Part shown: in pieces, positions 19,182 to 40,521 of the stretch | Layout: each line of letters starts with the position of its first letter | How positions within the stretch are numbered: the first letter of the stretch is position 1 | NCBI GenBank assembly: GCA_963169695.1 | Contig: CAUJDS010000011.1 | Location: 57,001-121,000, forward strand | Length of the DNA: 64,000 bases | Direction: 5' to 3' | DNA from: Bdellovibrionota bacterium | Lineage (GTDB): Bacteria > Bdellovibrionota > UBA1018 > CAUJDS01 | Program-made: the position numbers and the translations under genes | The notes under the pieces: model-generated | What the model saw: the letters and a program-made list of their open reading frames with translations, nothing else | Database searches by the model: none | Told to the model about the DNA's origin: nothing

Positions 19182-19313
19182 GAAGGTACGGACTTACTTT
19201 TGGGACTCAATGCATTATTTTGACGCACAGGGTCTCAAAAGCAAGCGCGCGCCTTATCTAAAAAATCACATATTGTACTAAAGTCTTTTGATCAGATATC
19301 GATAAGTCATTGA

Positions 19314-19961: not shown

Positions 19962-19965
19962 AAGA

Positions 19966-20952: not shown

Positions 20953-21025
20953 CCCTTCGTCGTACTTCCGAGTGGCTCGGGTGGCAAGACGAAGTGCGTC
21001 CGTTCACCGGGATAACGGTGACGAA

Positions 21026-22222: not shown

Positions 22223-22267
22223 GCGATCTCCCAATCTGGCGACTTCCCGTCGTCGTATATTTAACAT

Positions 22268-22358: not shown

Positions 22359-23492
22359 ATGACTGGGTTGATCCGAGGTTTTAGGCGCATAAACCCCCTT
22401 TGGCTGCTGGCCCTTCTCTGGGGTGTAGGCATGGTTGCTGGGGTCTACCGATCGTGGATCACTCGCTGCTATACCGACTTTGATGTCTACTATGATGCTG
22501 GCACGAGGTTCTACCAGGTGCTTCGGGGCCAAGCAGCCGACTTCACTGTTCGAACCGACGAGACTTCGCCCTTTCGATACGCGCCCTTTCTTGGGTGGCT
22601 TTTTATTCCGCTTACCTTCTTACCTCGTTACGGAGCATTGGCGGTCTGGGCTTTCCTTCAATGGTGCTGTTACGGTTGCTCTCTTTGGCTATTACGAAAA
22701 CATTTCAAACTTTCCGCCGGATCTTGCTGGATTGTCTTTTTGGGAACTTTGCGATTCGCGGTGGACAATGCAAACATCGGCCAAATTTCTGCACTGGACC
22801 TTTTACTCCTCACTTTTGCAGCTACCTCTACGTCAGCAACTTTTAGCGGATGGAGCCTCGCTGCAACATCGTTAATCAAAATTCGGCCTTTGGCATTTGC
22901 CGGTATCTGGATCCTCAGAAAAGACTGGAAACGCATTCGCTCTTTGGGAATGGGATTGGTGGTACTGATCCTTCTTTCACTCAGCTTTGGGCACGAGGCT
23001 TTCCTCTATTGGACAAAAAATCTCTTTCATACATCCTTGATTCACGCTTCCAGCTTTGGCAATCAAGCACTTTGGGGAGTGTTTTCACAAAATACAAACT
23101 ACGGTTCGCTTCTTCATCACACCTTGGCAGTATGCACATTGATTGGATTTTACAGGCTCTGGCTTCGTCACCGAAAGAACTTTAATTTAGGTTGGTCCTT
23201 AGGAATTGTATGGATCCTCGCCTTCGGAATGCTCACTTGGAAAAACACTTTTATCCTTCTGGCATTTCCACTGAGTTACGTACTGACCCTAAAAAGCTCG
23301 TCATCCACGCGATTGGCGTTGGGAGCATCGCTGATTTTTCTTCTCAGCTCTCGCGAAGTGATTGGATGGCTTTCCGTCCCGATCTATGATGCGACGATGC
23401 TCTACCGCACCACTGCAGTCCTTAGCCTTCTTCTGATTCCCCTAGCCCTGATCGGCTCCAAAGAAAGCGCCTCTGCCCGCAAACATCGGTGA
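22359..23492 (+). CDS. Polytopic membrane protein, DUF2029/GT87-like (PimE-type mannosyltransferase family).
   Basis: 377 aa with 9 or more TM segments. N-terminal ...YTDFDVYYDAGTRFYQVLRGQ resembles the GT87 DUF2029 signature. Confidence 0.5.
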   Translation: MTGLIRGFRRINPLWLLALLWGVGMVAGVYRSWITRCYTDFDVYYDAGTRFYQVLRGQAADFTVRTDETSPFRYAPFLGWLFIPLTFLPRYGALAVWAFLQWCCYGCSLWLLRKHFKLSAGSCWIVFLGTLRFAVDNANIGQISALDLLLLTFAATSTSATFSGWSLAATSLIKIRPLAFAGIWILRKDWKRIRSLGMGLVVLILLSLSFGHEAFLYWTKNLFHTSLIHASSFGNQALWGVFSQNTNYGSLLHHTLAVCTLIGFYRLWLRHRKNFNLGWSLGIVWILAFGMLTWKNTFILLAFPLSYVLTLKSSSSTRLALGASLIFLLSSREVIGWLSVPIYDATMLYRTTAVLSLLLIPLALIGSKESASARKHR

Positions 23493-26139
23493 GTCGGCAG
23501 CGAACGCATTCCTTCTCCAAACGAGGCTTTGCTTCGTAATGACCCTGCTTAATCGATCGAACACTTTCCTCGACCAGAGCCTTCGCGCGGGACCAAATCA
23601 CTTCAGGTTCGTCCGAGAATAGCGAGGCTTTGGAGCGTGTATGGGTAAGTGATCCGGGATTTTTTCCGTTGTAAGCTTCCAAGAAAATTCCACGCGCGCG
23701 ACTCACTTCTCGTCCTAAACTAACGTATTGCGCGCCCAAGACTTCTTGCCCCAATTTTTCGCGAGCCGCGACCGCATAAAAAGGAAGCTGAAGGCGATAC
23801 CCCTGCTCTAGAATTTCGGCACCGGTCGGAACGTCCGTTGTCGTCTTATAGTCGATCACAAAGACACCGTCGACATGCTGATCCAAGCGGTCTGGCACTC
23901 CGCGCACCAGCGTCCCATCTACTTCCAACTCCAAGACTTGCTCGCGTTCGACCGAGTAGAGTTTTGTTTCGGAACGAGCACGATACACTTGCTCGTCGTC
24001 CCAAAAACTCACCAAAATCTTCATCAATCGCCCTTTGACGTATTGTTCAGAATGCCGGCCTTTCATCCAACCCGCAGGATTGCGCTCGGACCATGCGCGC
24101 TCAAGGGCTCCAGCAAGATTGACGTCTTGCCCCTTCTCTCGGTCCTGTAAGATCCATTCAATTGCTCGATGAAGGATGGTACCCCGAACATCTGGCCAAA
24201 GTTCATCCTCAGGCTCGCGCTCATCTTGTATCTTCCAGCGATGGTCTACTAACGCCTGGAAGGAGCAGCGGGTATAACGATCCAATTCGGTCGCTTCAAG
24301 GTGCTTCTTTCCGCGATTTTCCCAGTTGGGCAGCTTCACCGATCGACATTGGATTCGTGTCGTGTTGCGATAACTCAAAAGGCGCTCTTTTCGAGGCTGA
24401 TCGATGACTCGATTCCAATTCACCGGAATTTTTTCTGCGATCAACTCATCGATATTGCGTAGTTCTTTGCCTTGACCATCATACGAGGCGAGGTGCCAAT
24501 GAACTTCTTTGGCTCCCACAAACCACTGCAGCAGGAGTCGCTGCCGGTCCTCCTGAAGGCCTCGCAATCCCTCAATCTGAAAGTCCACAGCAAGCCATTC
24601 TCGTTCTTTCCAAGAAAGTGCCATATCCGATTCGGTTGGTTCCCAATACAAATCCCGTTCTCCCAATCCAAAGAAATGAACGGCGACGCGCTCTCCTTCC
24701 TTCCAAAGTGGCGCTTGCTGGAAAAGGTGAATCTCCACCCCCTCCTGTGCAACCAGACGTTGTACCGAAGGAGCAATTTCTTCCAGAAGCTCTTGGAGCT
24801 TCTTCAGCCAGGACAACACTGGAAGCGCAAGGGTCTCCTGCTTGAGAAACTCCCAATCTACGCTGAGTGATTCATACACCCTCGTCAAGAACTCTCGCTC
24901 ATCTCCCGTTTCAAAACAGGCCTCATGCTGGACTTGGAGCTGCTCCAAGGTGAGCCGCTGAGAAAACCTGCCCTGAAGCGTGGCAAGTTCTTTGCCCAGC
25001 CCTGCTAAGACACCACCTTGATAGCCCTGTAAACCACGACGAAGTCCTCGTCGCTGAATCTCTCGGGTCAAAACTTGTTTCTCGGAGCCTGAATACTGCG
25101 GTAAAGACCAGAGCCATTCAAGAACCTTTGATCTCTCAAAGCGCTGCCCAACTAGTTGAAGCGGAAGAAGGATGCGCTTGGAAACCTCTGCTTGCCGAAC
25201 AGACAAGGGGTCACGCGTTTCTCGCGTGGCAATTCCCGCTGCTTTCAATCCTCTCCGCAAGGACCTCCGAAGCTCAGGACGATCCGGAATAACAAGAAGG
25301 CTACGCTCCCCGGACTCTTTTTTTGCGAGAGTGTCTGCCAGGGCACTTACTGCTTCATCCCAGGTATGGGCTCGGTGAAGCGTCCACACATCATTTGTCG
25401 TGGAATCCATCCCCGTTTTGACCCATTCACAAGAAACGCACTTGGCCACCTCGTCTAAAAAACTCTGCTCCAAGGATTCTGAGTCGCTCTGGTAAAGATA
25501 GACCCACTCCACTCCCCGCCAGCCTTCGGGAATAGCTCCATCCCGCAGGCGATCCCGCGCCAATCGCAAAAGCAGCGGCGAATCCACTCCCCCGTACGAA
25601 TCAAGGTAGGACTCATACGCATCCGCCATGCGTAGGATTTCTTCTCTCAAAACGGAGTGCGCGTTCTTCTCTGCCAATCTTGCTAGTAGGACTTCACGCT
25701 CTTCAAGCTCTGCATACAATCCGCGTGTCTTCTGAAGTGCTCGATCCAATCGCTTAAGAAATCCTGCACGCTTCTGAAATTTTCGCAGCTCCGGAAAGTA
25801 AACTGCGATCTCTTGCCGTCTCAGGAGCATTTCTAAGATTGCCCGTCGCACACCGGGAGAAACAAGGACTCGGTCCGGCACTACTTGTTGCGCTAGCTCC
25901 TGAATGGAGCAGATCTGGTGAGAAAGGAGCGATCCGCCTCGCGCAAAGATTTGTTCCTTGGCAGCCTCCTTAGAAAGACCCCGTCCTAGGCAGATCCGCT
26001 TCCTGGCACGCAGCCCACTGAAGTCCGACCAGTCCAACTGACTTATAGGTAATGCAGACGCGTATTTCCCCAATCGCGAGACTCCAAGTCTATCTTGGGC
26101 ACCCGTCCGGACTTCTTGCGGGTTTCTCCAATCAGCCAA
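23422..26139 (-). CDS. PD-(D/E)XK nuclease superfamily protein, AddB/RecB-nuclease-like with a C-terminal Fe-S cysteine cluster.
   Basis: 905 aa. RecB-type nuclease motif GVFVIDYKTT. C-terminal CVRC...C cysteine set as in AddB. No Walker A motif seen. Its 5' end overlaps purM by about 97 nt, so the true start may be downstream. Confidence 0.6.
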   Translation of the reverse strand: MADWRNPQEVRTGAQDRLGVSRLGKYASALPISQLDWSDFSGLRARKRICLGRGLSKEAAKEQIFARGGSLLSHQICSIQELAQQVVPDRVLVSPGVRRAILEMLLRRQEIAVYFPELRKFQKRAGFLKRLDRALQKTRGLYAELEEREVLLARLAEKNAHSVLREEILRMADAYESYLDSYGGVDSPLLLRLARDRLRDGAIPEGWRGVEWVYLYQSDSESLEQSFLDEVAKCVSCEWVKTGMDSTTNDVWTLHRAHTWDEAVSALADTLAKKESGERSLLVIPDRPELRRSLRRGLKAAGIATRETRDPLSVRQAEVSKRILLPLQLVGQRFERSKVLEWLWSLPQYSGSEKQVLTREIQRRGLRRGLQGYQGGVLAGLGKELATLQGRFSQRLTLEQLQVQHEACFETGDEREFLTRVYESLSVDWEFLKQETLALPVLSWLKKLQELLEEIAPSVQRLVAQEGVEIHLFQQAPLWKEGERVAVHFFGLGERDLYWEPTESDMALSWKEREWLAVDFQIEGLRGLQEDRQRLLLQWFVGAKEVHWHLASYDGQGKELRNIDELIAEKIPVNWNRVIDQPRKERLLSYRNTTRIQCRSVKLPNWENRGKKHLEATELDRYTRCSFQALVDHRWKIQDEREPEDELWPDVRGTILHRAIEWILQDREKGQDVNLAGALERAWSERNPAGWMKGRHSEQYVKGRLMKILVSFWDDEQVYRARSETKLYSVEREQVLELEVDGTLVRGVPDRLDQHVDGVFVIDYKTTTDVPTGAEILEQGYRLQLPFYAVAAREKLGQEVLGAQYVSLGREVSRARGIFLEAYNGKNPGSLTHTRSKASLFSDEPEVIWSRAKALVEESVRSIKQGHYEAKPRLEKECVRCRLTDVCGQRRFLWSRSGLGESEEG

Positions 26140-27074
26140 GCCATTTTACCAGAACGATGAATCGCTCCAATCACTGGGCCGACATCTTTGGGCTTCACCG
26201 CTAGAACCATTCCAAGTCCCATATTGAAGGTCTGAGCAGCTTCTTCAAATTTTATTTTCCCGGTATGGCGCAGCCAAGTATAGCATGGCGCGATCTCTTC
26301 GAGAGGCGGCAGCACCAGATCATAATCCAGTTTGTCGCTGATCCTTGGTAGGTTCAAAAAACCCGACCCCGTAATATGGGCCATGCCCTGAACCCAGCCT
26401 TTTTCTATGACTGGCCAAAGCGAGCGCACATAAATCTCGGTTGGACTTAATAGGGCTTTGACGAGGTCCTTACGGTTCTTTCCGGATTGGGGCAGGAGTT
26501 TTCTGAGGAGGCTGTAGCCATTGCTATGAAACCCGCTGGAGGCCACTCCCACCAGTGCCAAACCTGATGGCAAAGCCTTCTTAGGCAGTAGCTGCTTTGA
26601 GGATAAAAAACCTACTGCAAAACCTGCCAAATCATACTCACCTTTTTGGTAGATACCAGGCATCTCAGCGGTTTCGCCACCGACGAGTGCGCATTCGGCC
26701 ATCTCACAACCCTTGACGATTCCTGAGAGTACTTTCTTGGCGGTTGAAAGCTTGAGTCCTCCCGTTGCAAAGTAGTCCAGAAAAAATGCCGGCTTGGATC
26801 CCACACAGAGCAAGTCATTGACAGACATCGCAACCAAGTCGATGCCAATAGTTGAATGAATTCCCGATTCAAAAGCCAATTTCAGCTTAGTTCCAACTCC
26901 ATCAGTCGTAGCCGCGACATACTGAGCACCAGATCGAATCACGGACGCATAGCCACCAATCGAAGGATGGACTTTGGATGCCTGATTTCCTCGATTCATT
27001 TTCTGAATGCTGCTCACCAGCTGATCGCCGCGTTTTCGAGAAACTCCTGCTTTTTCGTACGTCCACGTCTTCAT
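26043..27074 (-). CDS. purM: Phosphoribosylformylglycinamidine cyclo-ligase (AIR synthetase).
   Basis: 343 aa. PurM N-terminal and C-terminal domain motifs (GGYASVIRSG..., DGVGTKLKLA, GGETAEMPG). Confidence 0.88.
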   Translation of the reverse strand: MKTWTYEKAGVSRKRGDQLVSSIQKMNRGNQASKVHPSIGGYASVIRSGAQYVAATTDGVGTKLKLAFESGIHSTIGIDLVAMSVNDLLCVGSKPAFFLDYFATGGLKLSTAKKVLSGIVKGCEMAECALVGGETAEMPGIYQKGEYDLAGFAVGFLSSKQLLPKKALPSGLALVGVASSGFHSNGYSLLRKLLPQSGKNRKDLVKALLSPTEIYVRSLWPVIEKGWVQGMAHITGSGFLNLPRISDKLDYDLVLPPLEEIAPCYTWLRHTGKIKFEEAAQTFNMGLGMVLAVKPKDVGPVIGAIHRSGKMAWLIGETRKKSGRVPKIDLESRDWGNTRLHYL

Positions 27075-27080
27075 ACTACC

Positions 27081-28667
27081 TCAGTGCTTAAAATGCCTAC
27101 GACCACTCATCATCATCCCGAGACCCCTTTGATCACATTCCGCAATAACTTCTGAATCCTTGATGCTCCCACCTGGCTGCACAATCCAAGCTATTCCAGC
27201 CTCGGCACAAACCTGAATGGAATCCGCAAAAGGGAAGAACGCATCGCTAATGAGAAGCGATTGCTTGAGATCTCCGGGCCATTGTGATTCCTTCAGGGTC
27301 TTCTTGGCGCGAGGAATTGCTAAAATCTGAATCGCATCAATTCGATTGGGCTGCCCTTGTCCCGCGCCAATCAACTGGTAGCCACGTTTCTCTGGAAGCT
27401 CTCTCACCAACGCAATGGCATTGGACCGCAGGCATCGCGTTACTGCTATACCAAAAGAAGTCAACGATCTGAATTCTTCAGGAAATGTCTTTTTCGTTAC
27501 GGACTTCAATTCCTCTTCTCCGCCACTGTCGGGAGATTGCATCAAACGGCCACCAGGAATAGCGGTCACTAGTTGGTCAGCCCAAGGCTCAATCCTTCTC
27601 AGCGACAATGCTTTCAGTTTTTTTCGCGATCGCAGCAAGGCATTCAATTCCTTAGAACCCGAAGCCAATCCCGGGGCAGCAACCAATTCTACAAATCGTG
27701 GGGCCAACCATTCTGCGGACTCTTGCGTAAGAGGATCACTGAAGCACAGCACTCCACCGAAAGCGGAAACGGGGTCTCCCTCCCACGCAGCCTGAAGTGC
27801 CTTAAGCTGAGACTGCGGTTCTGCTCGATTGATCCACGCTACTCCACAAGGATTGCCGTGTTTGACTATGACGACGCCGGTCCGCCCAGGAAAGCCTCGA
27901 TGCAATTCTTGAGTAAGATCATAAGCAGCCGTCATATCCAAAACATTATTGTAAGAGAGCGCCTGATCGGTCAGAGGCTTCTCAGAACCCACGGGCCAAG
28001 CAATCGGAGAATTCGGATCGACTTGCATCGAGGCCGTTTGATGCGGATTCTCGCCATAGCGTAGGGTCAAGGTCTCGCAACCTCTCAATTTTCTTTCTAT
28101 GGCGGAATCATAGTCCGCTACTCGCCTCCAAGCCTCCAATGCCGCTTGGCGAATGGTACTCTCTTCCACGCCATTAGTCCGATTCAATTCCAGAATCACT
28201 TGTGGATACTGCTTAGGATCGGTGAGCACGAGACAATCCGGCACACTCTTCGCCGCAGCTCGCACCCACGTAGGTCCGCCGATATCTATTTCTTCATGCA
28301 AGGCTCTAGCGTCCTGAAGCAAGTCCATTTTTTCAGCAGCTTTTTCAAAAGGATAGAAATTAATGACCACGGCATCAATAGGAAGCAGCCCTAGCTTCTT
28401 GAGATCGGCTTCATCTTTTTCGTCACCACGGCGATAGAGCAAACCGCTCCCAACCTGAAAAGAGAGTGTTTTCATCCGTCCCTGAAAGGCTTCAGGATTC
28501 CCAGTGATCTTCTCAATCGGCACAACCGACAGGCCTGCATCGACAAGAACTTGCGCCGTCTTGCCAGTTGCTACTAGTTCTGCGCCCGCCTTCGCAAAAG
28601 CATGGCCCAACTCAGCCAACTGATCTTTATTTGACACACTCAAGAGAACCCTTCGAGGTCGAAGCAC
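27081..28667 (-). CDS. purH: Bifunctional AICAR transformylase/IMP cyclohydrolase.
   Basis: 528 aa. N-terminal MGS-like domain (RVLLSVSNKDQLAELGHAFAKAGAELVATGKTA). C-terminal AICARFT domain. Confidence 0.88.
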   Translation of the reverse strand: MLRPRRVLLSVSNKDQLAELGHAFAKAGAELVATGKTAQVLVDAGLSVVPIEKITGNPEAFQGRMKTLSFQVGSGLLYRRGDEKDEADLKKLGLLPIDAVVINFYPFEKAAEKMDLLQDARALHEEIDIGGPTWVRAAAKSVPDCLVLTDPKQYPQVILELNRTNGVEESTIRQAALEAWRRVADYDSAIERKLRGCETLTLRYGENPHQTASMQVDPNSPIAWPVGSEKPLTDQALSYNNVLDMTAAYDLTQELHRGFPGRTGVVIVKHGNPCGVAWINRAEPQSQLKALQAAWEGDPVSAFGGVLCFSDPLTQESAEWLAPRFVELVAAPGLASGSKELNALLRSRKKLKALSLRRIEPWADQLVTAIPGGRLMQSPDSGGEEELKSVTKKTFPEEFRSLTSFGIAVTRCLRSNAIALVRELPEKRGYQLIGAGQGQPNRIDAIQILAIPRAKKTLKESQWPGDLKQSLLISDAFFPFADSIQVCAEAGIAWIVQPGGSIKDSEVIAECDQRGLGMMMSGRRHFKH

Positions 28668-28670
28668 TTT

Positions 28671-29318
28671 CTATCTCCTCTTCAAAACTTCATTGGTGAG
28701 TTCATTTTTGTCGTCTGCAGTTTTAGGGAAAACCTGAGACAGCTCTTCACCTAATTTTTCAATTCGTGCGCAGACTCCTTCCATTCCTTTGGAGGATCTC
28801 CATACCGTACAAAGATCTGTCACGAGTTTTTTCCAATAGGACTCGGACATTCGCAAATAAGCTTCCTTATCTGCGATAACTTCGATAGCGCGTTCCATGT
28901 CCGACAGGTAAATCAAAACTCCGTTGTGTTGGCGTGTCTCAGCCAAACCCTGTAGCAAAAACTGCGCTAGGGCTTCTCTTCTCAATGAGGCTGCAACTAT
29001 CTTTTGTGAGAGCGTCTTACGCTTCAGCCAAGGAAGAAAGGCCAGTCCATTGCCAATCGCCATGCCGAGTGTTTGCCAAAATAAAATTTCCACGAGACCC
29101 TGATTCCAACTTGGGGCCTGAAGGTACTGAATCCATAGAATCATCGAAGCAAAAATCCAACCCAGAATTGCCCAAAACGCATGAACCCAAGCTGCTGGCG
29201 TACTAGAAGTAGCCATTACGATTGCAATTTCAGCGTTCGTGAGCGACTCCGCATGCTCAACTGCTTTTTGGATTTGCTCCTGATCTTTTATATTAAGTGG
29301 GTCTTTTTTGGATATCAT
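28671..29318 (-). CDS. TPM-like domain membrane protein (third member of the LemA/TPM triplet).
   Basis: 215 aa. Central TM helices. Weak TPM-fold pattern (...NAEIAIVMATSS...GVLIYLSDMERAIEVIADKEA). Confidence 0.45.
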   Translation of the reverse strand: MISKKDPLNIKDQEQIQKAVEHAESLTNAEIAIVMATSSTPAAWVHAFWAILGWIFASMILWIQYLQAPSWNQGLVEILFWQTLGMAIGNGLAFLPWLKRKTLSQKIVAASLRREALAQFLLQGLAETRQHNGVLIYLSDMERAIEVIADKEAYLRMSESYWKKLVTDLCTVWRSSKGMEGVCARIEKLGEELSQVFPKTADDKNELTNEVLKRR

Positions 29319-29327
29319 TGCTTCACC

Positions 29328-30095
29328 CTACCATCGTCCTGATGCACCGCCACCTCCAAAACCACCGCCTCCTCCGCCGAAGCCACCACCACCAAATCCA
29401 CCACCGCCTCCGAAACCTCCCCCACCAAAACCCCCGCGACCTGACCATCCTCTTCGCCGCGACCAATTTTGTGAATGACCGCCTCCAAGTGAACTGAGAT
29501 AAACAAATAGAATCAGCACAAAGATCAAAAAGATAATGGTGCTTACCTGACCTGCCCTACCATCACTTATTCGACCCTTTACAGCCGGAGCCTGAATGGA
29601 TGGATCCAAATGATGAAGAATAGTCAAATAGGCACTACGAATACCCTCGCTGTAATTCCCGGCTCGAAAGAAAGGAACCAACTGATCTTGAATAATCTCC
29701 GAAGCAACTGCATCTGGAATTTCTCCTTCCAGGCCATACCCTACTTCGATCCGCATTTGTCGCTCTTTGGGAGCAATGAGTAACAAAACCCCGCGATCCG
29801 AGCCCTTCACTCCGAGTTTCCACTTCTCGGCCACGGCAATACTGAAGGATTCGATGGCGTGCCCTTGCAAAGAAGCTGGAATATAGACCGCCAACTGGAT
29901 GCCCTTGGATTGATAGACCTCTAGCAACTCCTTGGCCAAGACCTCACGCTCTGGAGAAGAAAGCAGTCCAGCGGAGTCCATAATAGGATCTCGCAATTCC
30001 GGAATGGTCTTCTTGAGGTCATCATTCAAAGCCGCCTGCGATACCAAGGCCGCAAATAAGATGGCAAGACTCCATCCGGCAAAACGAAGCTTCAT
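29328..30095 (-). CDS. TPM domain protein (YgcG-like) with a C-terminal Gly/Phe-rich tail.
   Basis: Signal peptide. TPM domain (DSAGLLSSPEREVLAKELLEVYQSKGIQLAVYIP...GVLLLIAPKERQMRIEVGYGLEG). Tail GGFGGGGFGGGGGFGGGG. The tail produces the low-complexity DNA repeat at about 29,340-29,440. Confidence 0.75.
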   Translation of the reverse strand: MKLRFAGWSLAILFAALVSQAALNDDLKKTIPELRDPIMDSAGLLSSPEREVLAKELLEVYQSKGIQLAVYIPASLQGHAIESFSIAVAEKWKLGVKGSDRGVLLLIAPKERQMRIEVGYGLEGEIPDAVASEIIQDQLVPFFRAGNYSEGIRSAYLTILHHLDPSIQAPAVKGRISDGRAGQVSTIIFLIFVLILFVYLSSLGGGHSQNWSRRRGWSGRGGFGGGGFGGGGGFGGGGFGGGGGGFGGGGASGRW

Positions 30096-30680
30096 TTAGA
30101 AACTCACTTTAGGAGTCTCTTGTGCTGACTCAGCGGCCTTAAAGGTTTCTCGTACTTGCAAATCCAAAAGGTACTTAGCCGTCAGGTTGGTCGGAAAGTA
30201 TCGAACCTTCTTATTGTAATTAGCCACCTGATCAATATAGCGTGTGCGAGCTACTGCGATTCGATTTTCAGTGCCTTCTAGCTGAGCCTGAAGAGAAAGA
30301 AAATTCTGATTGGCTTTGAGGTCTGGGTAACGCTCAATCGAAACTAGAAGGCGCCCCAGACTTCTGCCAAGCTGATCTTGAGCGGCCTGATATTTTTGAA
30401 ACATCTCCGGATTCGAAAGATCCTTTGCGTTGAGCTGGATTTGGGTGGCTTTGGCTCGCGCTTCAATTACGGCTTGCAGCGTATCTTTTTCATGCTTCGC
30501 GTATCCCTTAACCGTCTCTACCAAGTTCGGAATCAAGTCCGAACGACGCTGAAACTGATTTTGAACTTCAGACCACGAAGCTTTGACGTCTTCATCCAGT
30601 CCTTGAAGCGAATTGTACCCACAGCCCGCAAGACTTAGGTTGAACAAAACAAGTACCACTAAACTCTTAACCATCTTCAT
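30096..30680 (-). CDS. lemA: LemA family protein.
   Basis: 194 aa. N-terminal anchor followed by the LemA signature (GYNSLQGLDEDVKASWSEVQNQFQRRSDLIPNLVETVKGYAKHE). Confidence 0.8.
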   Translation of the reverse strand: MKMVKSLVVLVLFNLSLAGCGYNSLQGLDEDVKASWSEVQNQFQRRSDLIPNLVETVKGYAKHEKDTLQAVIEARAKATQIQLNAKDLSNPEMFQKYQAAQDQLGRSLGRLLVSIERYPDLKANQNFLSLQAQLEGTENRIAVARTRYIDQVANYNKKVRYFPTNLTAKYLLDLQVRETFKAAESAQETPKVSF

Positions 30681-31459
30681 TTTCCACTTACCTCCTGAAA
30701 CGCATTTTGAAACATCAACAGACCATCACCCGGTCCCCCAGCTCGATCAGGCTGGTAGGTCCACTCGGGATGAGAAGTCCATCGCACAAAGGCCTCGGGA
30801 TGCGGCATTAATCCAAAGATCCTTCCCGTCGAATCACATAGCCCTGCCAAACCAAAGGCGCTGCCATTTGGATTTTGTTCATACTTCAAACACATCATTC
30901 CGTAGCGTTCAAACTTACTTACGACTTCTGCGCTATGAGAGCCCTGAAACAAAATCCTACCCTCACCATGACGAATCGGAAGGTCAATCGTCCCCATTCG
31001 CTTGAGCCAAACGCAAGAATCACTTCCTCGCACAACCCGCACCCATTTATTTACGAACTTGCCTTGCTCGTTATTGGTTATGGTGACTGACTTTCCAAAG
31101 ATGCCTAGGCGAATCAAAGCCTGAAATCCGTTACAAACTCCAAGCACTAGGCCGCCGCGCGCTGCAAAAGCTGCAAGATCCCAACGCAAGCCATGCTGAA
31201 TTTTGAGGGCCAGTAGCTTTCCTGATGAAAGATCATCCGCAAACGAGAAGCCGCCCGGCAGCGCCAGCACCGAGTAACGCGACGACAGGTGGTCAAGCGT
31301 CATGCTCTCGGCAATCATATCGTTGAGGTGCCGTATCTCTGCTTCAAACCCAACGAGCCTCAAGGCTTCCGCTGTTTCTGTTTCGCAGTTGATGCCATCT
31401 CCCGTAATGACCAACGCACGCAAAGGTGAACTCATTCCCAATATCCTTCCCGACTCCAA
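30677..31459 (-). CDS. purQ: Phosphoribosylformylglycinamidine synthase glutaminase subunit PurQ.
   Basis: 260 aa type-I glutamine amidotransferase. Catalytic LGVCNGFQAL. Lies directly downstream of purL. Confidence 0.8.
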   Translation of the reverse strand: MESGRILGMSSPLRALVITGDGINCETETAEALRLVGFEAEIRHLNDMIAESMTLDHLSSRYSVLALPGGFSFADDLSSGKLLALKIQHGLRWDLAAFAARGGLVLGVCNGFQALIRLGIFGKSVTITNNEQGKFVNKWVRVVRGSDSCVWLKRMGTIDLPIRHGEGRILFQGSHSAEVVSKFERYGMMCLKYEQNPNGSAFGLAGLCDSTGRIFGLMPHPEAFVRWTSHPEWTYQPDRAGGPGDGLLMFQNAFQEVSGK

Positions 31460-34400
31460 GCCTTACGGCATAAATCCATGTCCAAGCTCCAAGACTCCGG
31501 TTTTACACCAGTCTGAAATTGAACTTCCAAACGAGGCGCCTTCTGCACATGGCCCATCGCCAAGAAGGGGACCTCATAGTTTTTCCACTCGGCCTCTAAG
31601 AATTGAGTATGAGCCGGAGAACAGGAGACGACGAAAGAGTGAAACCCCTCTCCAAAGCAAAACTCCCACGGATCCTCATAACGAGGAACCTGAATCAATC
31701 CGCCAAGCCCCCTTCCAAGAATACTCTCCACAACCGCTACCAAAACTCCGCCTTCCGACACATCATGAACGGAGGACAAACGTTCTTGATGCTCGCCCAG
31801 ACTTCCGCCCAACCAACGATAAATTCGCTGCGCCACTCTCCAGTCTGGAAGTCCCAATCGGTGCTCTTTGGTAAGGAGATTCGATGTTGGCAACACTGCT
31901 GAATTCTGCGAGCCACCCTTTTCTCGAATACGCTCCATCAGCATGGCGTGCATTTCTGAACCCAGGAGTCCAAATTGCCGGCCGCCTAATAGATAGATAC
32001 TCTGGCCGTCACCCTTGAAATCCGCCGTACGTGCCTTACGTATATCTTTGACTCGTCCCATGGCTGTGACTAGCAACGTGGGCGGTACCGAAATCCGGAT
32101 TTCTTTGCCTTCGCGCTTTCCGACGTAGTCATTCTTCATGGAATCTTTGCCCGATATCAAGGGCGCGCCCAATTCCAAACAAGCGTCACGCAAGCCAAAA
32201 CAGGCTCGGACCAAGGCACCCGCTTTCTCGGTATCCACCAGTGGATCAGGCCAACAGAAATTATCGACCAGTGCCAACATGGACTCGGCTGTCCCATACT
32301 CGGCACCAACGGCAAGGATGTTTCGAACGGATTCATCCACCGCACTTTGGGCCATGAGGTAGGGATCCAAATCCGAAAGCTTGGGGTTGATTCCGCATCC
32401 AACAGCGATTCCAATATTCTTATTGGGTTTTGGCTTCAAGACGGCAGCATCATTGGGACCACTAAACTCACTAGGCGTCCCCACCATTCGAGTATGGAGC
32501 GGTTTGATCACAGACATCCCTTGAACTTCATGGTCATACTGACGGATCAGCCATTCCTTAGACGCAATATTGGGGCGCTCAAGAAGCTCCAAGAGGCGCT
32601 TAGGTCCATCGATCGAAAAGTCCCATTCAATTTTTCCTGGTGTCTGATTTTCATGGGTCCAACTCGCTTCGATTTCGAGGGTTGGTCCACCATGATGAAG
32701 GAACTTGAGGTCAATCAATGCCAGGGCTTTTCCGTTATATAGGATTTCAAAAAATCCGCTGGTATTGAACTCACCAAGGTCACTGACTTCTACACCGCGT
32801 CTTTGCGCAAGCACCTTAAAGGCATCACGCTTCTCAGGCGGAACCGCAACGGTCATTCGCTCTTGGGATTCACTGATCACCAGTTCGTAGGGCCGAAGTC
32901 CTGGGTACTTGGTTTTGGCAAGTCCCACGTCGATCTTTGCGCCACCGCTCAGGGTTGCAAGCTCACCCACTGAGGAAGACAATCCGCCCGCTCCATTGTC
33001 GGTAAGCGTGCGATACAATCCAAGGTCGCGCGCTTCCAAAATAAAGTCGCTCATACGCTTCTGAGTAATGGGATCACCCAACTGAACGGCGGAGGTAGGA
33101 GAACTTTCTTGAAGGGCCAAAGAAGAAAACGTCGCTCCATGAATCCCGTCTTTACCGATTCTTCCTCCCACCATAAAGACTCGATCGGAAGGTCGAATCT
33201 CCTTGGTCTGACAAGGGATACCTCCGCTCATGCGTGGCATGATTCCGCCCGTACCGCAATAAATGAGGGGTTTGCCAAGAAAGCGATCATCAAAAACCAA
33301 GGCGCCATTGACGGTTGGAATCCCACTTTGATTTCCGCCGTCTTCCACTCCTTTGCGAACCCCATCTAAAATTCGACGCGGATGCAAGATACGATCAGGC
33401 AAAGGGGCCAGGTAGTCTGGTTTTGCCACGCAGAATACATCAGTATTGAAAATGGGTTTGGCACCGCGTCCACATCCCAAGATATCGCGATTGACGCCAA
33501 CGATTCCGGTAAGTGCGCCGCCATAAGGATCCAAGGCGGATGGAGAATTATGCGTTTCGACTTTGATACAAATGGCATCTTCTTCATCGAGCGCAACAAT
33601 GCCCGCGTTGTCCTTGAATACGGATAGGAGCCAAGGTCGTTGAATCTCTGCCGTAGTTCCAGCAATCGTGGTCTTAAAAAGACTATCTACTCGCTCTGGC
33701 AAACTCGAACGTACACCCCAAGGGCTCTCACCGATTTCACGATAGTGAATCGTCGCATTGAATATCTTATGTTTGCAGTGCTCAGACCAAGTCTGTGCAA
33801 AAACTTCCATCTCCACATCCGTGGGCTGAATGGGCAAATCTCGATCCGTGCGAAGCGACTTCACGCGATTGTCTTGAAAGTGCTTTCGAATAGCTTTCAT
33901 CTCGTCCAACGAAAGTGCCCAGAGTGCTTCGCGGCTCATATCCGTCAGCGCTTGATCATTGAGGCCGTCGAGCGCCACTTCATGAACGCGATCTGAACCC
34001 TTCATTGGACTTCTCGAAAACCCAAACCGCACATGATCTGGTTGAAAGCGTTCATTTGAGCGCAGCTCAACAGCAGGAACGAGGGTCCACGAGTGAATCA
34101 ATTCATTACTCAAGACATCTTTGGCAAGCAAGGTTACGTCGGATTCTTTGAGGTCCACGCCTTCCAAAACCAAAAGACAACCACTTGATGCTCGAGGATG
34201 GGTGTTCTTTCCAGCAAGCACAATATCCAAAGCTTCGCGCGCTGACCGTCCAACATTGTCTGTGACGCCTGGACGAAAACGGCGCTCAATCCCCCAGAAA
34301 TTTCCCGATCGCTGAGGAGCCGATTCAAAGAGGTCCAAAAGGCCGCCGTGAGACCCTGCCGTAGAAGGAATCAAATCGCCTGTAAAAAGCCAATTGACCA

Positions 34401-34602
34401 CGGGGTCATGAAAAATGGCGCTCACCGCAGGGATCACTTGTTCGCGTGGAGCCTGAACCTCTAACCAATAGACTTGCAACATCCGCGCCCAGCGAATTGC
34501 GCGCCGAATCTTTGGATGGGCCATCTCGATTCGTCGAAGGATTCGATCTGCTTCGGGGTCATTGAATTCTGGACGACGTGCAACTTCAACTCGGACGAAC
34601 AA
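31432..34602 (-). CDS. purL: Phosphoribosylformylglycinamidine synthase PurL. Large-type architecture but no C-terminal glutaminase domain.
   Basis: 1056 aa. N-terminal large-PurL-type domain followed by duplicated AIRS-like FGAM synthetase domains. Length lies between the small (~740 aa) and large (~1300 aa) PurL forms. A separate purQ follows. Confidence 0.8.
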   Translation of the reverse strand: MFVRVEVARRPEFNDPEADRILRRIEMAHPKIRRAIRWARMLQVYWLEVQAPREQVIPAVSAIFHDPVVNWLFTGDLIPSTAGSHGGLLDLFESAPQRSGNFWGIERRFRPGVTDNVGRSAREALDIVLAGKNTHPRASSGCLLVLEGVDLKESDVTLLAKDVLSNELIHSWTLVPAVELRSNERFQPDHVRFGFSRSPMKGSDRVHEVALDGLNDQALTDMSREALWALSLDEMKAIRKHFQDNRVKSLRTDRDLPIQPTDVEMEVFAQTWSEHCKHKIFNATIHYREIGESPWGVRSSLPERVDSLFKTTIAGTTAEIQRPWLLSVFKDNAGIVALDEEDAICIKVETHNSPSALDPYGGALTGIVGVNRDILGCGRGAKPIFNTDVFCVAKPDYLAPLPDRILHPRRILDGVRKGVEDGGNQSGIPTVNGALVFDDRFLGKPLIYCGTGGIMPRMSGGIPCQTKEIRPSDRVFMVGGRIGKDGIHGATFSSLALQESSPTSAVQLGDPITQKRMSDFILEARDLGLYRTLTDNGAGGLSSSVGELATLSGGAKIDVGLAKTKYPGLRPYELVISESQERMTVAVPPEKRDAFKVLAQRRGVEVSDLGEFNTSGFFEILYNGKALALIDLKFLHHGGPTLEIEASWTHENQTPGKIEWDFSIDGPKRLLELLERPNIASKEWLIRQYDHEVQGMSVIKPLHTRMVGTPSEFSGPNDAAVLKPKPNKNIGIAVGCGINPKLSDLDPYLMAQSAVDESVRNILAVGAEYGTAESMLALVDNFCWPDPLVDTEKAGALVRACFGLRDACLELGAPLISGKDSMKNDYVGKREGKEIRISVPPTLLVTAMGRVKDIRKARTADFKGDGQSIYLLGGRQFGLLGSEMHAMLMERIREKGGSQNSAVLPTSNLLTKEHRLGLPDWRVAQRIYRWLGGSLGEHQERLSSVHDVSEGGVLVAVVESILGRGLGGLIQVPRYEDPWEFCFGEGFHSFVVSCSPAHTQFLEAEWKNYEVPFLAMGHVQKAPRLEVQFQTGVKPESWSLDMDLCRKAWSREGYWE

Positions 34603-35236
34603 AGGCCCTCCTCTCGGGGCCTGCGCCCCGGTTCTCTACCATAAACTTCTCTGACAAAATCCAATTCAGGGCTCGAGGATAGAGGTCATGCTCTAGCTCA
34701 AGGCCCTTTTTTTCGACTTCTGAAATGGAAGTCAAATGCTGAATATCAAATGCTTCCTGTGCACAAACAGGTCCTTCGTCCATCCCTTCACTGACCAAAT
34801 GAACGGTGACTCCGGTAACTTTAGCGCCATAGTGAAAAGCCTTGGCGTAACTACCCAATCCAGGAAAAGCTGGCAAAAGCGAAGGATGAATGTTCACCAC
34901 GCGCTGATAGCCTTTGCCCGAATCAAATGCGCCTAAAAACTCAGGGGATAAAAGACGATCATACCCCGCGAGTACAACAAACCCCACCCTTTGAGCACGC
35001 AATAGCAATAAGACACGTTGGTCATAGCTAGTCCGAGATTCTTGAGGAAGGGCAATCAAACATTCTGAATGAACTTTTGCTTCGCTAGCATAAGCCAGGA
35101 CAGGAGCCTTCTCCCGATTGGAAAGCACTAAAACCGGGTCGTGTTGCAAATCCCCGCGCCGACAAGCTTCTAGGATTGCCTTGGCATTGCTTCCACGGCC
35201 CGAGGCCAAAATAGCAAATCGCTGACGTATGCTCAT
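34586..35236 (-). CDS. purN: Phosphoribosylglycinamide formyltransferase.
   Basis: MSIRQRFAILASGRGSNAKAIL... with the PurN motif. The true start is the ATG at 35236 (M70 of the track ORF). Start overlaps the purD stop (ATGA). Confidence 0.85.
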   Translation of the reverse strand: MSIRQRFAILASGRGSNAKAILEACRRGDLQHDPVLVLSNREKAPVLAYASEAKVHSECLIALPQESRTSYDQRVLLLLRAQRVGFVVLAGYDRLLSPEFLGAFDSGKGYQRVVNIHPSLLPAFPGLGSYAKAFHYGAKVTGVTVHLVSEGMDEGPVCAQEAFDIQHLTSISEVEKKGLELEHDLYPRALNWILSEKFMVENRGAGPERRAFVRPS

Positions 35237-36513
35237 AAGACGCCTACGTCCTCTCGGTTCTGCATTCCTCGAAACCGCATGGTCTCCAATCGCTGGTAGG
35301 CCAACGCACGCGCCTCTTCCAATTTTGGCGCCTGTCCCAATGCACCAAGTACGCGTCCTCCAGAAGTCACGCCGGGTTCTTTCATACCAGCAACAAATCC
35401 AGAGGGATCTTGGCACGACCGAAGCGACTCCTTCCACTTCCAACCCGAAACAGAATCACCTTTCACGGGCGCATCAGGATATCCTTCGGCGGCACCGACG
35501 ACATAGACTGCCGCGCGATCATGAAATCCAACACGCACCTGATCGTGTTGCCATCCTTCGCCCGTAGCTACTCGCATAACCCATTGCCAAAGATCGTCTT
35601 TCATACGCGGAAGCAAGACTTGCGCTTCTGGATCTCCGAGCCTTGCATTGAATTCCAAAACCGAGAGCCGCTGCGTACTAGAATTGAAAATCAATCCTGC
35701 ATAGAGGATTCCATGAAATGGGGTTCCGCGCTTTTTCATTTCATGAAGCACAGGAAGGAACACATCCTTTCGCACTCGCTCAAAAGCTTCTTCTGTTTGA
35801 AACAAAGCGACTGGACTGTAGGCGCCCATGCCACCCGTATTAGGACCTAGGTTTTTGGTTTGGAGGCGCTTGTAATCTCGAGAAGTATCCCAAAGCGCTA
35901 CGCGATCACCGCGACAGAACGCCATCCAAGAAACCTCTTCTCCCTCTAAAAACTCTTCAATGACGACGTTGCCCGACAATTCCAATAGTGTCTCTAACGC
36001 CTGACTTGCATCCTTGCGTGTCGAGCAAATCTTGACGCCTTTGCCGAGTGCGAGTCCGTCTGCTTTGATCACCCAAGGAGACTTGAATCGATCGAGCGCA
36101 CGCTCACCCGCACTTCGATCTGTGACGCTGACCCAAGCGGCTGTATCAACCTTTGCAGCTTGCATGATTTCTTTTGCAAAGGACTTGCTGGATTCTAATT
36201 TTGCGCCGGTCGCGAGCGGTCCAAGTGCTGGAATACCTGCTGCTACGAAGTGATCGCAGAGCCCTTGAGCAATGGGATCATCTGGCCCAACCACTGCACA
36301 TTGAACACCTTCGGTTTTTGCTCGCTGAACGATTTCTTCAAATCCAATTTCTGGATTCCAAACTTCGAGCGACCATTGGGATTCTTTTTCTGGAACGGCT
36401 GCAATATGAGACGCCACCCAAATGAGTCGAGTCACCTCAGTCGACTGCGCCAACTTCCAAGCCCACGCGTGCTCTCTCGCACCAGAGCCATAAAGAAGGA
36501 CCGTCGCTCCCAC
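35233..36513 (-). CDS. purD: Phosphoribosylamine--glycine ligase.
   Basis: ATP-grasp. VLLYGSGAREHAWAWKL N-terminal motif. The start is probably a GTG at about 36513 that overlaps the purC stop (TAGTG); the exact start is uncertain. Confidence 0.82.
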   Translation of the reverse strand: MGATVLLYGSGAREHAWAWKLAQSTEVTRLIWVASHIAAVPEKESQWSLEVWNPEIGFEEIVQRAKTEGVQCAVVGPDDPIAQGLCDHFVAAGIPALGPLATGAKLESSKSFAKEIMQAAKVDTAAWVSVTDRSAGERALDRFKSPWVIKADGLALGKGVKICSTRKDASQALETLLELSGNVVIEEFLEGEEVSWMAFCRGDRVALWDTSRDYKRLQTKNLGPNTGGMGAYSPVALFQTEEAFERVRKDVFLPVLHEMKKRGTPFHGILYAGLIFNSSTQRLSVLEFNARLGDPEAQVLLPRMKDDLWQWVMRVATGEGWQHDQVRVGFHDRAAVYVVGAAEGYPDAPVKGDSVSGWKWKESLRSCQDPSGFVAGMKEPGVTSGGRVLGALGQAPKLEEARALAYQRLETMRFRGMQNREDVGVL

Positions 36514-37793
36514 TAGCTTCCCTCCATATGGACAGAGTATTCTTGCAGCACCCGATCGAGTGACCACGCTTGAGCAAACCAACGTTTGCCCGTGAGTTCA
36601 TTGGCGAGTGCTTGATAAAGCTGAGAAACCCATTCACGCTTGGCCTTCGGGAGGGACTGGGGCTGCTCAGCAACTAATTTTTTCCAATCCAAGATCCCTT
36701 TGGCCTTGGCCTCCTCTTTTGCTCGCTCTACGCCTTGATACCAACTCGTTGTACGGTAATGCGAACGAAGCGCTTCCTTCGAAAGTTGAATGCCGTTCTT
36801 GAGGATCCGTAGTTCATCCGGACCAATCGCATCCACGAGCATCAACTCCCCAGTCTCCGTCAAACCCCATTCGAGTTTTCCGTCAGCGAGTTCGAGGCCC
36901 GATCGAGCGCAAAGGTCTTTGAGGTAGCCAGCCACCCAAACGGTCTTTAAGAAAAGCTCCTCAAGAATCCTCGCAGGAATTCCACAGAGATTGATGGCTT
37001 CGGTGGTTCCGATCCTACGATCTTCGGATTCGAGCTTCGTCGAAAACTCGATCACCGGAAAATCCCACTTCGTGCCGGGTTCTACTCCACGCGCCATGAC
37101 CTCAGGAGGTAGCGCAAGGTTCTTCCAATAATCCGCGTGTTTTTGAACGTAAGAAACCAAAGAACTTCCCGGTGGGCACGAAAAACGAAACAGAACCTCA
37201 AGTGGAATCAACCGAGGAGGCTTGGTCGCCCGGACGGGCGAGTAATCCAAGACCGAGCGCCCCAAAAAGACATCCTCTCTCGGGCGCTCTACTGCTACCT
37301 TCCGCACCACGAGGTGCCGAAAAACCTCGGGATCTGGCTTTTCAAATAGTTCACTCGAGAGCCTTGGCTGAACACCCCCACCATCCATCAAAGAAGCCAC
37401 CAACGAAGATGGTGCAACCCCAAGCATGTGAGTGAGGAGACCTTTTTGCTTCAGCACCTCACCGATTTCATTGAAGGTTGAATTGATTGAGACGGGCTCT
37501 GCAGTCTTACGTTTGGGACTCGCTGCTCCCAGGGCTGACATACCTTTGCGAATCTGCAGTGCGGTCTCTGATTTCGAGAATCGCTCCCACGATCGAGGAT
37601 CCTGCAACCGCTCGTACCAGCAAGCTGCGAGAATGGCCAATGCAGCGCCTTTTTCTGGAAGGAGGTCGGGCATCCTTCCCCAATCAAATACCGAATAAGC
37701 GTCCGTATAGTGAAAGAGGAGCGCGTCCGAGCCTTCAAATTGAACGGGTCCCAGTACGTCTTTGACGGATCCACGATAAAGGGTAGAAATCAC
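36513..37793 (-). CDS. purC: SAICAR synthetase (phosphoribosylaminoimidazole-succinocarboxamide synthase), long form with a ~150-aa insertion.
   Basis: MISTLYRGSVKDVL, IPLEVLFR, LADGKLEWG and LVDAIGPDELRI match PurC motifs. 426 aa against the usual 240-300. Confidence 0.75.
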   Translation of the reverse strand: MISTLYRGSVKDVLGPVQFEGSDALLFHYTDAYSVFDWGRMPDLLPEKGAALAILAACWYERLQDPRSWERFSKSETALQIRKGMSALGAASPKRKTAEPVSINSTFNEIGEVLKQKGLLTHMLGVAPSSLVASLMDGGGVQPRLSSELFEKPDPEVFRHLVVRKVAVERPREDVFLGRSVLDYSPVRATKPPRLIPLEVLFRFSCPPGSSLVSYVQKHADYWKNLALPPEVMARGVEPGTKWDFPVIEFSTKLESEDRRIGTTEAINLCGIPARILEELFLKTVWVAGYLKDLCARSGLELADGKLEWGLTETGELMLVDAIGPDELRILKNGIQLSKEALRSHYRTTSWYQGVERAKEEAKAKGILDWKKLVAEQPQSLPKAKREWVSQLYQALANELTGKRWFAQAWSLDRVLQEYSVHMEGS

Positions 37794-37808
37794 TCTCTCT
37801 CCTCCAAG

Positions 37809-39296: not shown

Positions 39297-39446
39297 TTTG
39301 CGTCTTGTTTATCATAAACTTTATCGCGTTAGCACTGCTTTTGACGTTTAATACAGAAGTGAATACAATCATTTCCGGGGGGAGGCTTAACTGGTGCTTG
39401 TGGTGCCGGCTAGGTCCATCAACGAATTCACTTCAGATTTGGGGGA

Positions 39447-40454: not shown

Positions 40455-40521
40455 ACCTCCAAGGGACCTAAGGTTTTGCTATATCCCGTTGGCTCCAGTA
40501 AGATAAAGAGGATTATCTGAC

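Follow-up and report, generated by a model that had tools for sequence, protein, structure and literature searches.

On the minus strand of the window, by which we mean the whole stretch of 64,000 nucleotides analysed here (contig CAUJDS010000011.1, positions 57,001 to 121,000), a row of purine-biosynthesis genes is interrupted by three genes of a different kind, giving the order purF-purC-purD-purN-purL-purQ, lemA, a BA41/YgcG-type TPM gene, a BA42-type TPM gene, purH-purM and an AddB-like nuclease gene. The host row of eight pur genes plus the addB-like gene measures about 16 kb. Its upstream part (31432-39296) comprises purF (37809-39296), purC (36513-37793), purD (35233-36513), purN (34586-35236) and purL (31432-34602), all matched by Pfam and NCBIfam models and set apart by overlaps or gaps of at most 15 nt in the gene calls on L001; purL is of the long form (1056 aa), and its N-terminus carries a weak PurS-like match. 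Directly upstream of the insert lies purQ, encoding the glutaminase subunit of FGAM synthase (30677-31435; PF13507, E 3e-59, and the NCBIfam PurQ models), and directly downstream of it purH, encoding AICAR transformylase/IMP cyclohydrolase (27081-28667; NF002049, 434 bits against a cut-off of 402). The remainder of the row (23422-27074), delimited by profile matches and gene calls, consists of purM (26043-27074; Pfam and NCBIfam) and the gene for an AddB-like PD-(D/E)XK nuclease, which overlaps purM and is called at 23422-26073 on L001, its reading frame extending to a TTG at 26139.

The three inserted genes, likewise on the minus strand, are lemA (30096-30680), the BA41/YgcG-type TPM gene (29328-30095) and the BA42-type TPM gene (28671-29318), the last of which we refer to as the third gene. 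These families are ones that we take to be of the COG1704/COG1512/COG3762 type, and Escherichia coli YgcG is itself a TPM member. The gene identities, the order and the tight packing that a sequence-only reading of this DNA had proposed are all borne out. Pfam and NCBIfam match the three products to the LemA and TPM families only, with no homology to enzymes or regulators of the purine pathway.

Junctions and translation signals

From purQ through purM, neighbouring genes overlap by 4 nt at most and lie no more than 9 nt apart, both in the sequence and in the gene calls on an independent assembly: an ATGA overlap at purQ/lemA, 0 nt between lemA and the TPM gene, 9 nt between the two TPM genes, 3 nt between the third gene and purH, and 6 nt between purH and purM. 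At the purQ/lemA junction (30677-30696) a Shine-Dalgarno sequence, AGGAGG (30691-30696), lies within the last purQ codons, and the ATGA at 30677-30680 places the lemA start over the purQ stop. The third gene/purH junction (28665-28680) is built similarly, with GAGGAG (28675-28680) as a Shine-Dalgarno sequence within the final codons of the third gene, its stop codon TAG at 28671-28673 and the GTG start of purH at 28665-28667. The insertion is exact, in that the C-terminus of PurQ and the N-terminus of PurH align with those of relatives; there the 3' end of purQ contains the corresponding ...CAGGAGG... and leads into purH by way of GTGA, ATGA or short overlaps. To judge from this alignment, the Shine-Dalgarno and ATGA context that the relatives use for purH has here passed to lemA.

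Proteins encoded by the triplet

The lemA product (194 aa) covers the PF04011 profile from position 1 to 149 of 149 with its residues 35-194 (191.3 bits against a cut-off of 26.2; E 1e-56) and matches the solved Thermotoga LemA structure 2ETD (E 1e-35); its nearest homologues, 73-74% identical, are found in Bdellovibrionota MAGs. Its N-terminus is hydrophobic over residues 3-25 and, as read from the translation, shows a signal sequence of the lipoprotein type, its lipobox L-A-G-C lying at residues 16-19, so the membrane anchor is probably a lipid. The LemA helical domain is shared with the magnetosome protein MamQ, yet the score against the NCBIfam MamQ model, 84.5 bits, falls far under the cut-off of 250, for which reason orthology with MamQ was rejected; the locus also lacks any magnetosome context.

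The second protein (255 aa) consists of a signal peptide, a TPM domain at residues 38-158, one transmembrane helix at about 187-205 and a Gly/Phe-rich tail (GGFGGGGFGGGGGFGGGGFGGGGGGFGGGGASGRW), its hydrophobic segments being 5-23 and 187-205. It matches PF04536 over profile positions 1-121 of 125 (121.2 bits, cut-off 22.1; E 3e-35), as well as the PDB entries 2KW7 (E 6e-26) and 7TBR (E 1.5e-20). To BA41 of Bizionia argentinensis (5ANP) the match is full-length, membrane anchor and tail included (residues 8-255, E 1e-15). The genes for BA41 and BA42 presumably adjoin a lemA gene as well.

The third protein (215 aa), which the sequence-only reading had called merely TPM-like, proves to contain a genuine TPM domain. 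Alone it scores 20.6 bits against PF04536, under the cut-off of 22.1, because a transmembrane hairpin splits the domain; all 70 of its 70 aligned homologues, by comparison, match PF04536 (E <= 0.01, best 3e-14), and the family profile matches BA42 (2LT2/4OA3; E 1.3e-21) in two segments, one on either side of the hairpin. An AF2 model built with the alignment (pLDDT 94.6) finds BA42 as its top Foldseek match (E 4e-9, TM 0.87 normalised to BA42) and, as a model, superposes on BA42 of B. argentinensis (4OA3/2LT2/2MPB), including the C-terminal strand that completes the sheet; a single-sequence AF2 model, all-helical and with a pLDDT of 63, was discarded. The hairpin, whose two predicted helices span about residues 43-67 and 75-92, follows the first strand of the TPM domain. 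It measures about 68 residues and falls between the positions equivalent to BA42 residues 38 and 39, whereas BA42 itself is a free-standing soluble domain. The positive-inside rule predicts a cytoplasmic location for the TPM domain of the third protein. A word-indexed search with the third protein recovered itself and one homologue, and an exhaustive HMMER search was needed to bring out the family, which comprises 3255 representative clusters. Since most members, at 200-220 aa, match the query over nearly its full length, most of them probably carry the same hairpin insertion.

Next after BA42 in the Foldseek search rank the AscF chains and Psb32, members of a group of TPM proteins with the same fold (Psb32/TLP18.3 in photosystem II repair, AscF in the mycobacterial CIII-CIV supercomplex) that are described as membrane-associated accessory subunits or assembly factors (PMC13456599; bioRxiv 10.1101/2024.10.28.620569). 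Their sequence identity to the third protein is, however, only 12-14%, and those systems have no LemA partner. For BA41 and BA42, ATPase/ADPase or phosphatase activity has been reported in papers cited by PMC13456599 and PMC11237479; in the papers that the former cites, such activity is reported for some TPM members only, and there is no agreement on the responsible residues.

The purQ-purH junction in relatives and triplets at other loci

In all seven of the nearest purH relatives (L004, L015, L096, L097, L098, L100 and L101), whose purH products are 53-58% identical to that of the window, purQ directly abuts purH; the junction was checked by tblastn in the first five of them. The purQ product of the window is 62-67% identical to those of relatives. 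The nearest relative is labelled Oligoflexia. A scan of a genome collection with purH alone returned two loci, one of them the relative L004, while a metagenome scan with the purH alignment supplied 80 unrelated purH loci from distant bacteria (34-42% identity), which serve as a background control only; in none of these 80, among the matches listed, does a LemA or TPM gene occur within 6 kb of purH. Other unrelated genes do occur in the row of some relatives, between purH and purM in L100 and between purM and the nuclease gene in L015 and L098. With the window, L015 also has in common dapF and a small ExoX-like gene upstream of purF.

Conversely, four independent free-standing LemA-TPM-TPM triplets were found (L010, L011/L012, L013/L014 and L099), none of which (0/4) has pur genes at its locus. 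The LemA homologues nearest to that of the window (74%) are among them, as is the nearest homologue of the third protein (37%). Like the triplet of the window, each consists of three genes that run in one direction with tight spacing and agree in domain content and architecture (L010, L011, L013, L099), the order of the TPM genes being variable (the BA42-type gene is second in L011). The free-standing triplets possess an upstream intergenic region of their own, whereas that of the window is lodged between purQ and purH without intergenic DNA. The statement that such triplets are not normally associated with pur genes is thus upheld by both surveys, and comparative synteny, which had been suggested as a check, places the triplet inside the pur operon in this lineage only. 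The proposal of a novel regulatory linkage fares worse, given that the arrangement is confined to one species-level lineage and that purQ-purH is uninterrupted in every one of the seven nearest relatives. Because the triplet sits in the pur operon of a single lineage, it looks like an insertion that the operon has taken along with it rather than a conserved link to purines.

Origin and age of the insertion

Four sequencing runs (ERR15459719, ERR10643333, ERR10643334 and ERR10643335), assembled independently, all show the same arrangement; one of them represents a second strain, which has 145 differences in 20.5 kb (0.7% divergent) and keeps the triplet intact. Between the triplets of the two strains there are 3 synonymous and 2 non-synonymous changes, too few for a test of selection. 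The triplet is unremarkable in codon usage, with a Karlin B of about 0.32 in the middle of the range for window genes of similar size, and its GC content is only slightly low, at 0.458 for lemA and 0.449 for the third gene where the window averages 0.496±0.022. These figures lend no support to a recent acquisition by horizontal transfer from a distant donor. No meaningful direct or inverted repeats that would betray a mobile element were seen at the borders of the insert, and the window holds no paralogous copy of LemA or TPM. With ordinary composition and streamlined junctions, the insertion does not look very recent. The sequence-only reading had offered a recent neutral insertion as its alternative to a regulatory linkage; the uninterrupted relatives speak for the insertion, and the composition and the junctions speak against its being recent. 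Relative to genomes whose PurH is at most 58% identical, the triplet is best read as a lineage-specific and well-settled insertion at the purQ/purH junction.

Discussion

Judging solely from the spacing of the genes, co-transcription of the triplet with the pur genes is very likely, because the junctions leave no space in which a promoter or terminator could flank the triplet, and the search for such sites detected none. Promoter-like sites (sigma-70 consensus sites only) numbered 9 against 12.5±3.7 expected and terminator-like sites 26 against 20.7±4.2; neither class is enriched, none of the sites at the borders of the triplet is convincing, and the Rfam scan of the whole window returned no riboswitch and no other RNA family. 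It had been argued beforehand that separate promoters and terminators around the triplet, combined with relatives in which the operon is uninterrupted and the triplet stands elsewhere, would speak against a linkage: the uninterrupted operons and the free-standing triplets were found, the flanking promoters and terminators were not.

The account that we consider probable is that a standard envelope module was inserted in this lineage at purQ/purH and is read through without any role in purine synthesis. A LemA/BA41-type/BA42-type TPM module, originating elsewhere in the same genome or in a related bacterium, would have entered exactly at the purQ/purH junction, in this lineage only. As the insert lacks a promoter or terminator of its own, it would be transcribed by read-through from a promoter upstream of purF. 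lemA would then be translated from the signals that serve purH in relatives, and purH, in turn, from the Shine-Dalgarno sequence that the final codons of the third inserted gene contain. The LemA lipoprotein and one TPM domain would lie on the periplasmic side, with the hairpin-anchored TPM domain on the cytoplasmic side, and the likeliest role of the module may be to help assemble or maintain membrane complexes, perhaps including a phosphatase activity. Its place in the pur operon would reflect the tolerance of the row for insertions, together with selection that keeps purH and purM expressed.

A comparable case is yexA of Bacillus subtilis, an uncharacterised ORF inside the pur operon, similarly placed between the FGAM-synthase genes and later pur genes, which proved to be a pur gene, purS. 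The position of purS is nonetheless conserved across many genomes and PurS is an enzyme subunit, whereas the triplet of the window is absent from the operons of relatives; moreover, the PurS-like segment appears, from its weak match, to be already fused to PurL here.

Were the insertion instead selected for a functional linkage, the TPM proteins would be nucleotide phosphatases on both faces of the membrane, co-induced with de novo purine synthesis under purine scarcity so as to salvage or balance purine nucleotides, a scenario to which we grant little credence. The packing does resemble translational coupling with the ribosome-binding context of purH re-used, the streamlined junctions and the retention of an intact arrangement in two strains would also fit positive selection for co-expression, and the full-length likeness of the second protein to BA41 and the membership of the third in the BA42 family bring in the enzymatic activities reported in the papers mentioned above, and with them a possible nucleotide-related role. 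Yet an association with pur genes is found in none of the seven relatives, none of the 80 other purH loci among the matches listed and none of the four other triplets, and TPM activities are weak and disputed, roles as assembly factors (Psb32, TLP18.3, AscF) being equally supported (PMC13456599, PMC11237479, bioRxiv 10.1101/2024.10.28.620569). A literature search on LemA, TPM, YgcG and the operon returned nothing on the function of the module or on a purine link. A functional tie of the triplet to purine metabolism is, at present, unsupported.

Expression mainly from an internal promoter, of the ECF-sigma or another non-consensus type, within purL or purQ and independent of purine status, appears unlikely as well, if less remote. 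Up-regulation of LemA and TPM genes in an sppA mutant of Flavobacterium columnare, an envelope perturbation (PMC13236525), would suit such a promoter, and the promoter scan recognises the sigma-70-type consensus only; that scan, however, found no promoter-like site on the minus strand at 28600-31500, lemA overlaps purQ by 4 nt with its Shine-Dalgarno sequence inside purQ, and the downstream purH and purM require transcription through the triplet in any case. Finally, there is next to no chance that the contig is a chimera in which assembly or binning has fused a LemA locus with pur genes: the genome is metagenome-derived and its closest matches are metagenome assemblies, but both junctions recur in independent assemblies of four runs, one of them from a divergent strain, and the reading frames overlap cleanly. 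The read-through of a settled, lineage-specific insertion is hence the account that we carry forward.

Understood as such an insertion, the locus offers a tidy example of an unrelated cassette settled inside an essential biosynthetic operon, one that would take over the translational-coupling signals of the gene that it displaces and supply new ones for the genes downstream; the locus adds little else. To our knowledge, LemA-TPM-TPM modules are very common and lack an agreed role. It is a long shot that the insertion was selected and that the module is tied to the purine economy in this Oligoflexia/Bdellovibrionota-like lineage, for instance through paired nucleotide phosphatases flanking the membrane; if true, the tie would provide the first physiological handle on a very widespread, uncharacterised bacterial membrane module, since a purine-dependent phenotype would make it experimentally approachable. 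As for the BA42 family, the modelled structure clarifies what would be its common form, namely a TPM domain that faces the cytoplasm and is interrupted by a membrane hairpin, and with this anatomy the module would have a TPM domain on either face of the inner membrane.

Gene order and coherence of the pur row

Twelve co-directional genes, identified with Pfam and NCBIfam, run unbroken on the minus strand from 39296 to 23422: purF (37809-39296), purC (36513-37793), purD (35233-36513), purN (34586-35236), purL (31432-34602; the long 1056-aa form), purQ (30677-31435), lemA (30096-30680; PF04011, E 1e-56), a TPM gene (29328-30095; PF04536, E 3e-35), a third ORF of 215 aa (28671-29318; PF04536 at 20.6 bits, below the cut-off of 22.1), purH (27081-28667), purM (26043-27074) and a gene for an AddB-like PD-(D/E)XK nuclease (23422-26073). 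Read from the DNA, purQ and lemA share an ATGA overlap, and the lemA/TPM, TPM/third gene, third gene/purH and purH/purM junctions measure 0, 9, 3 and 6 nt; gene calls on an independent assembly give comparably tight remaining junctions, so that the order and packing described in the sequence-only reading prove exact to the base.

The PurL of this row is an intermediate form: it carries the FGAR-AT linker (PF18072), and the roughly 200 aa added at its N-terminus match PurS weakly, with 18.9 bits against a cut-off of 22.2; its glutaminase is the separate PurQ beside it, no separate purS occurs in the pur gene row, and the form is common to the relatives (1029-1049 aa). PurC, with 426 aa, is longer than usual (395-439 aa in the relatives), and the alignment of its residues 4-404 to positions 7-274 of 279 of TIGR00081 implies about 130 extra residues. 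The nuclease gene (region 22359-26139) overlaps the end of purM; in four relatives (L015, L097, L098 and L101) a gene for an AddA-like UvrD-helicase/nuclease comes after it, a partner missing in the window, where an opposite-strand GT87 glycosyltransferase gene overlaps its 3' end instead. Divergent from purF and overlapping the end of dapF, a small plus-strand ORF (39447-39677, about 76 aa) has a weak ExoX-like_C match and is kept at the equivalent place in L015; the sole good sigma-70-like site of the region (39341-39369, plus strand) is directed towards it. Elsewhere in the window lie four consecutive ORFs without a Pfam match (17718-22267; 487, 215, 328 and 413 aa), the last with a Gly/Cys-rich C-terminal tail (GGGTGGGCTGVGCGGGIGV), and, within 10741-15547 on the minus strand, a gene whose 1096-aa product ends in an FGE-sulfatase domain, adjoining an RPE65-type carotenoid oxygenase gene.

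The three inserted proteins

Each protein of the triplet belonged to its own family when membership was tested. LemA matches the solved LemA 2ETD (E 1e-35), and the lipobox read in its N-terminus (MKMVKSLVVLVLFNLSLAGC) suggests that it is probably a periplasmic lipoprotein. The second protein combines a signal peptide and a TPM domain with a single membrane helix (about 187-205) and a Gly/Phe tail. Its whole length aligns with BA41 of Bizionia argentinensis (5ANP, E 1e-15), and it also matches the TPM structures 2KW7 and 7TBR.

Judged by Pfam alone the third ORF would be a doubtful TPM protein, a view overturned by the family search, profile, AlphaFold model and Foldseek. An exhaustive HMMER search (E ≤ 1e-3) finds a large family of 3255 representative clusters, mostly of 200-220 aa, although the best non-self match is only 37% identical, and all 70 aligned members match PF04536. 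A small profile of this family recovers BA42 (2LT2/4OA3) with E 1.3e-21 in two pieces, profile positions 4-35 matching BA42 4-38 and 104-207 matching 39-142. The AlphaFold model, built with the alignment and of high confidence (pLDDT 94.6, pTM 0.87), places a strand at 30-36, long helices at 43-67 and 75-92, the remaining α/β sandwich and a C-terminal strand at 212-214; Foldseek ranks BA42 at the top (E 4e-9, TM 0.87), followed by AscF, the cytoplasmic TPM subunit in the CIII-CIV supercomplex of mycobacteria, and then by BA41 and Psb32. The third protein is therefore a BA42-type TPM domain interrupted by a transmembrane hairpin; like, probably, most of its family it is anchored in the membrane by this insertion, whereas solved BA42 (145 aa) is soluble and is the atypical member. 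By the positive-inside rule, the KRK after helix 2 and the uncharged inter-helix loop point to a TPM domain oriented to the cytoplasm, in which case the module would present a TPM domain on either face of the inner membrane, in addition to LemA. Alignments A2 and A3 of the BA42-type family likewise show lengths of mostly about 200-220 aa, a probable membrane hairpin and, at the C-terminus, the conserved motif FP…ADDxNELxN. Which of the two TPM genes comes first varies among triplets, the BA42-type gene being second in the free-standing locus L011.

Comparison with relatives and build of the insertion

The databases hold no close relatives of the source organism, the best purH homologues being 58% identical. 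Seven of the nearest relatives were examined (L004, labelled an Oligoflexia MAG; L015, GCA_900143125.1; L096; L097; L098, GCA_964496965.1; L100; L101). All seven share the order purC-D-N-L-Q-H, with purQ abutting or overlapping purH and neither LemA nor TPM genes between them; L015 additionally has upstream dapF and the small ExoX-like gene ahead of purF. Hence the synteny comparison suggested by the sequence-only reading shows that the triplet is not inside the pur operon everywhere. In the 80 purH loci listed by a metagenome scan, which come from a range of unrelated bacteria, the 6 kb around purH holds no LemA or TPM match. The closest homologues (LemA, with 74% identity in both L011/L012 and the Bdellovibrionaceae MAG L013/L014; third protein, 30% in L010 and 37% in L099) belong to free-standing triplets without pur genes, which bears out the earlier statement that such triplets are widespread and normally unconnected with purine genes. 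Taken together, the free-standing loci and the uninterrupted purQ-purH pairs indicate that the triplet is an autonomous, widespread unit whose placement within the pur operon is confined to the source lineage.

The insertion is clean. The C-terminus of PurQ (…FQNAFQEVSGK*) and the N-terminus of PurH (VLRPRRVLLSVSNK…) align with those of the relatives, and neither gene has lost sequence. In the relatives a Shine-Dalgarno-like …CAGGAGG… lies in the last purQ codons and the purH start overlaps the purQ stop; here the equivalent AGGAGG (30691-30696) and the ATGA overlap now serve lemA, and purH follows a GAGGAG (28675-28680) that the final codons of the third gene provide. The borders carry no meaningful direct or inverted repeats, codon usage of the three genes is typical of similar-size genes in the window, and GC is slightly low (lemA 0.458, third gene 0.449, versus 0.496±0.022). 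The insert therefore looks well settled and unlike a new arrival from a distant donor; it may have come from another genome or from a former place in the same one. Of the signs by which the sequence-only reading would recognise a recent neutral insertion, uninterrupted relatives and free-standing triplets are seen; flanking promoters and terminators were not detected, and the insert does not look very recent.

The row also carries other passengers. In L100 (7565-9173) purH and purM are separated by a response-regulator gene plus an unknown gene on the opposite strand; L015 (12650-14844) has four and L098 (4038-4994) two small unknown genes separating purM from the nuclease gene. These are the relatives' own, unrelated insertions, and the row itself couples pur genes with an AddB-like nuclease gene. 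Since the row tolerates passengers, co-location within it is weak evidence for a shared function.

Transcription and function

The triplet has no intergenic DNA in which a promoter or a terminator could lie. Scanned for consensus sites, the region 23000-41000 gave 9 promoter-like sites (12.5±3.7 expected), none on the minus strand inside or beside the triplet, and 26 terminator-like sites (20.7±4.2 expected), the few near the triplet being 5-6-bp stems with poor T tracts within coding sequence; no Rfam family matched across the whole window. As purH and purM lie downstream without promoter space of their own, transcription must cross the triplet, and its co-transcription with the pur genes is very likely. 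Transcription of the triplet would begin at the purF promoter and read through, with lemA translation coupled to purQ, and selection for purH and purM expression may have excluded terminators from the insert and shaped its junctions.

That the arrangement is an assembly artefact is scarcely conceivable, given that the triplet junctions recur in separate assemblies from four sequencing runs, one of them from a different strain (L001) in which 20.5 kb of sequence contain 145 differences and the arrangement is the same. An undetected internal promoter driving the triplet is unlikely, and would be compatible with the main reading. In the TPM literature, TLP18.3, Rv2345, BA41 and BA42 are reported to have phosphatase or ATPase/ADPase activity, Psb32, TLP18.3 and AscF are assigned roles in assembly or as adaptors, and comparative genomics groups TPM with chaperone-like partners of PspA (PMC13456599; PMC11237479; bioRxiv 10.1101/2024.10.28.620569). 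Co-regulation might have been selected because TPM domains act on purine nucleotides, but this is very improbable: conserved association with pur genes, the one testable mark of a purine-biosynthesis component, fails in the seven relatives, the 80 listed purH loci and the free-standing triplets, and the regulatory linkage raised as a possibility in the sequence-only reading is confined to one lineage. In Flavobacterium columnare, LemA and a TPM gene go up together upon envelope perturbation (PMC13236525). We consider it probable that the module serves membrane-complex assembly or maintenance, without a purine connection.

A LemA/BA41-type/BA42-type module thus sits exactly at the purQ-purH junction in one lineage. 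It adds one more example of a known module, here in a context that is unusual yet limited to a single lineage, and its significance is that of an annotation-level remark.
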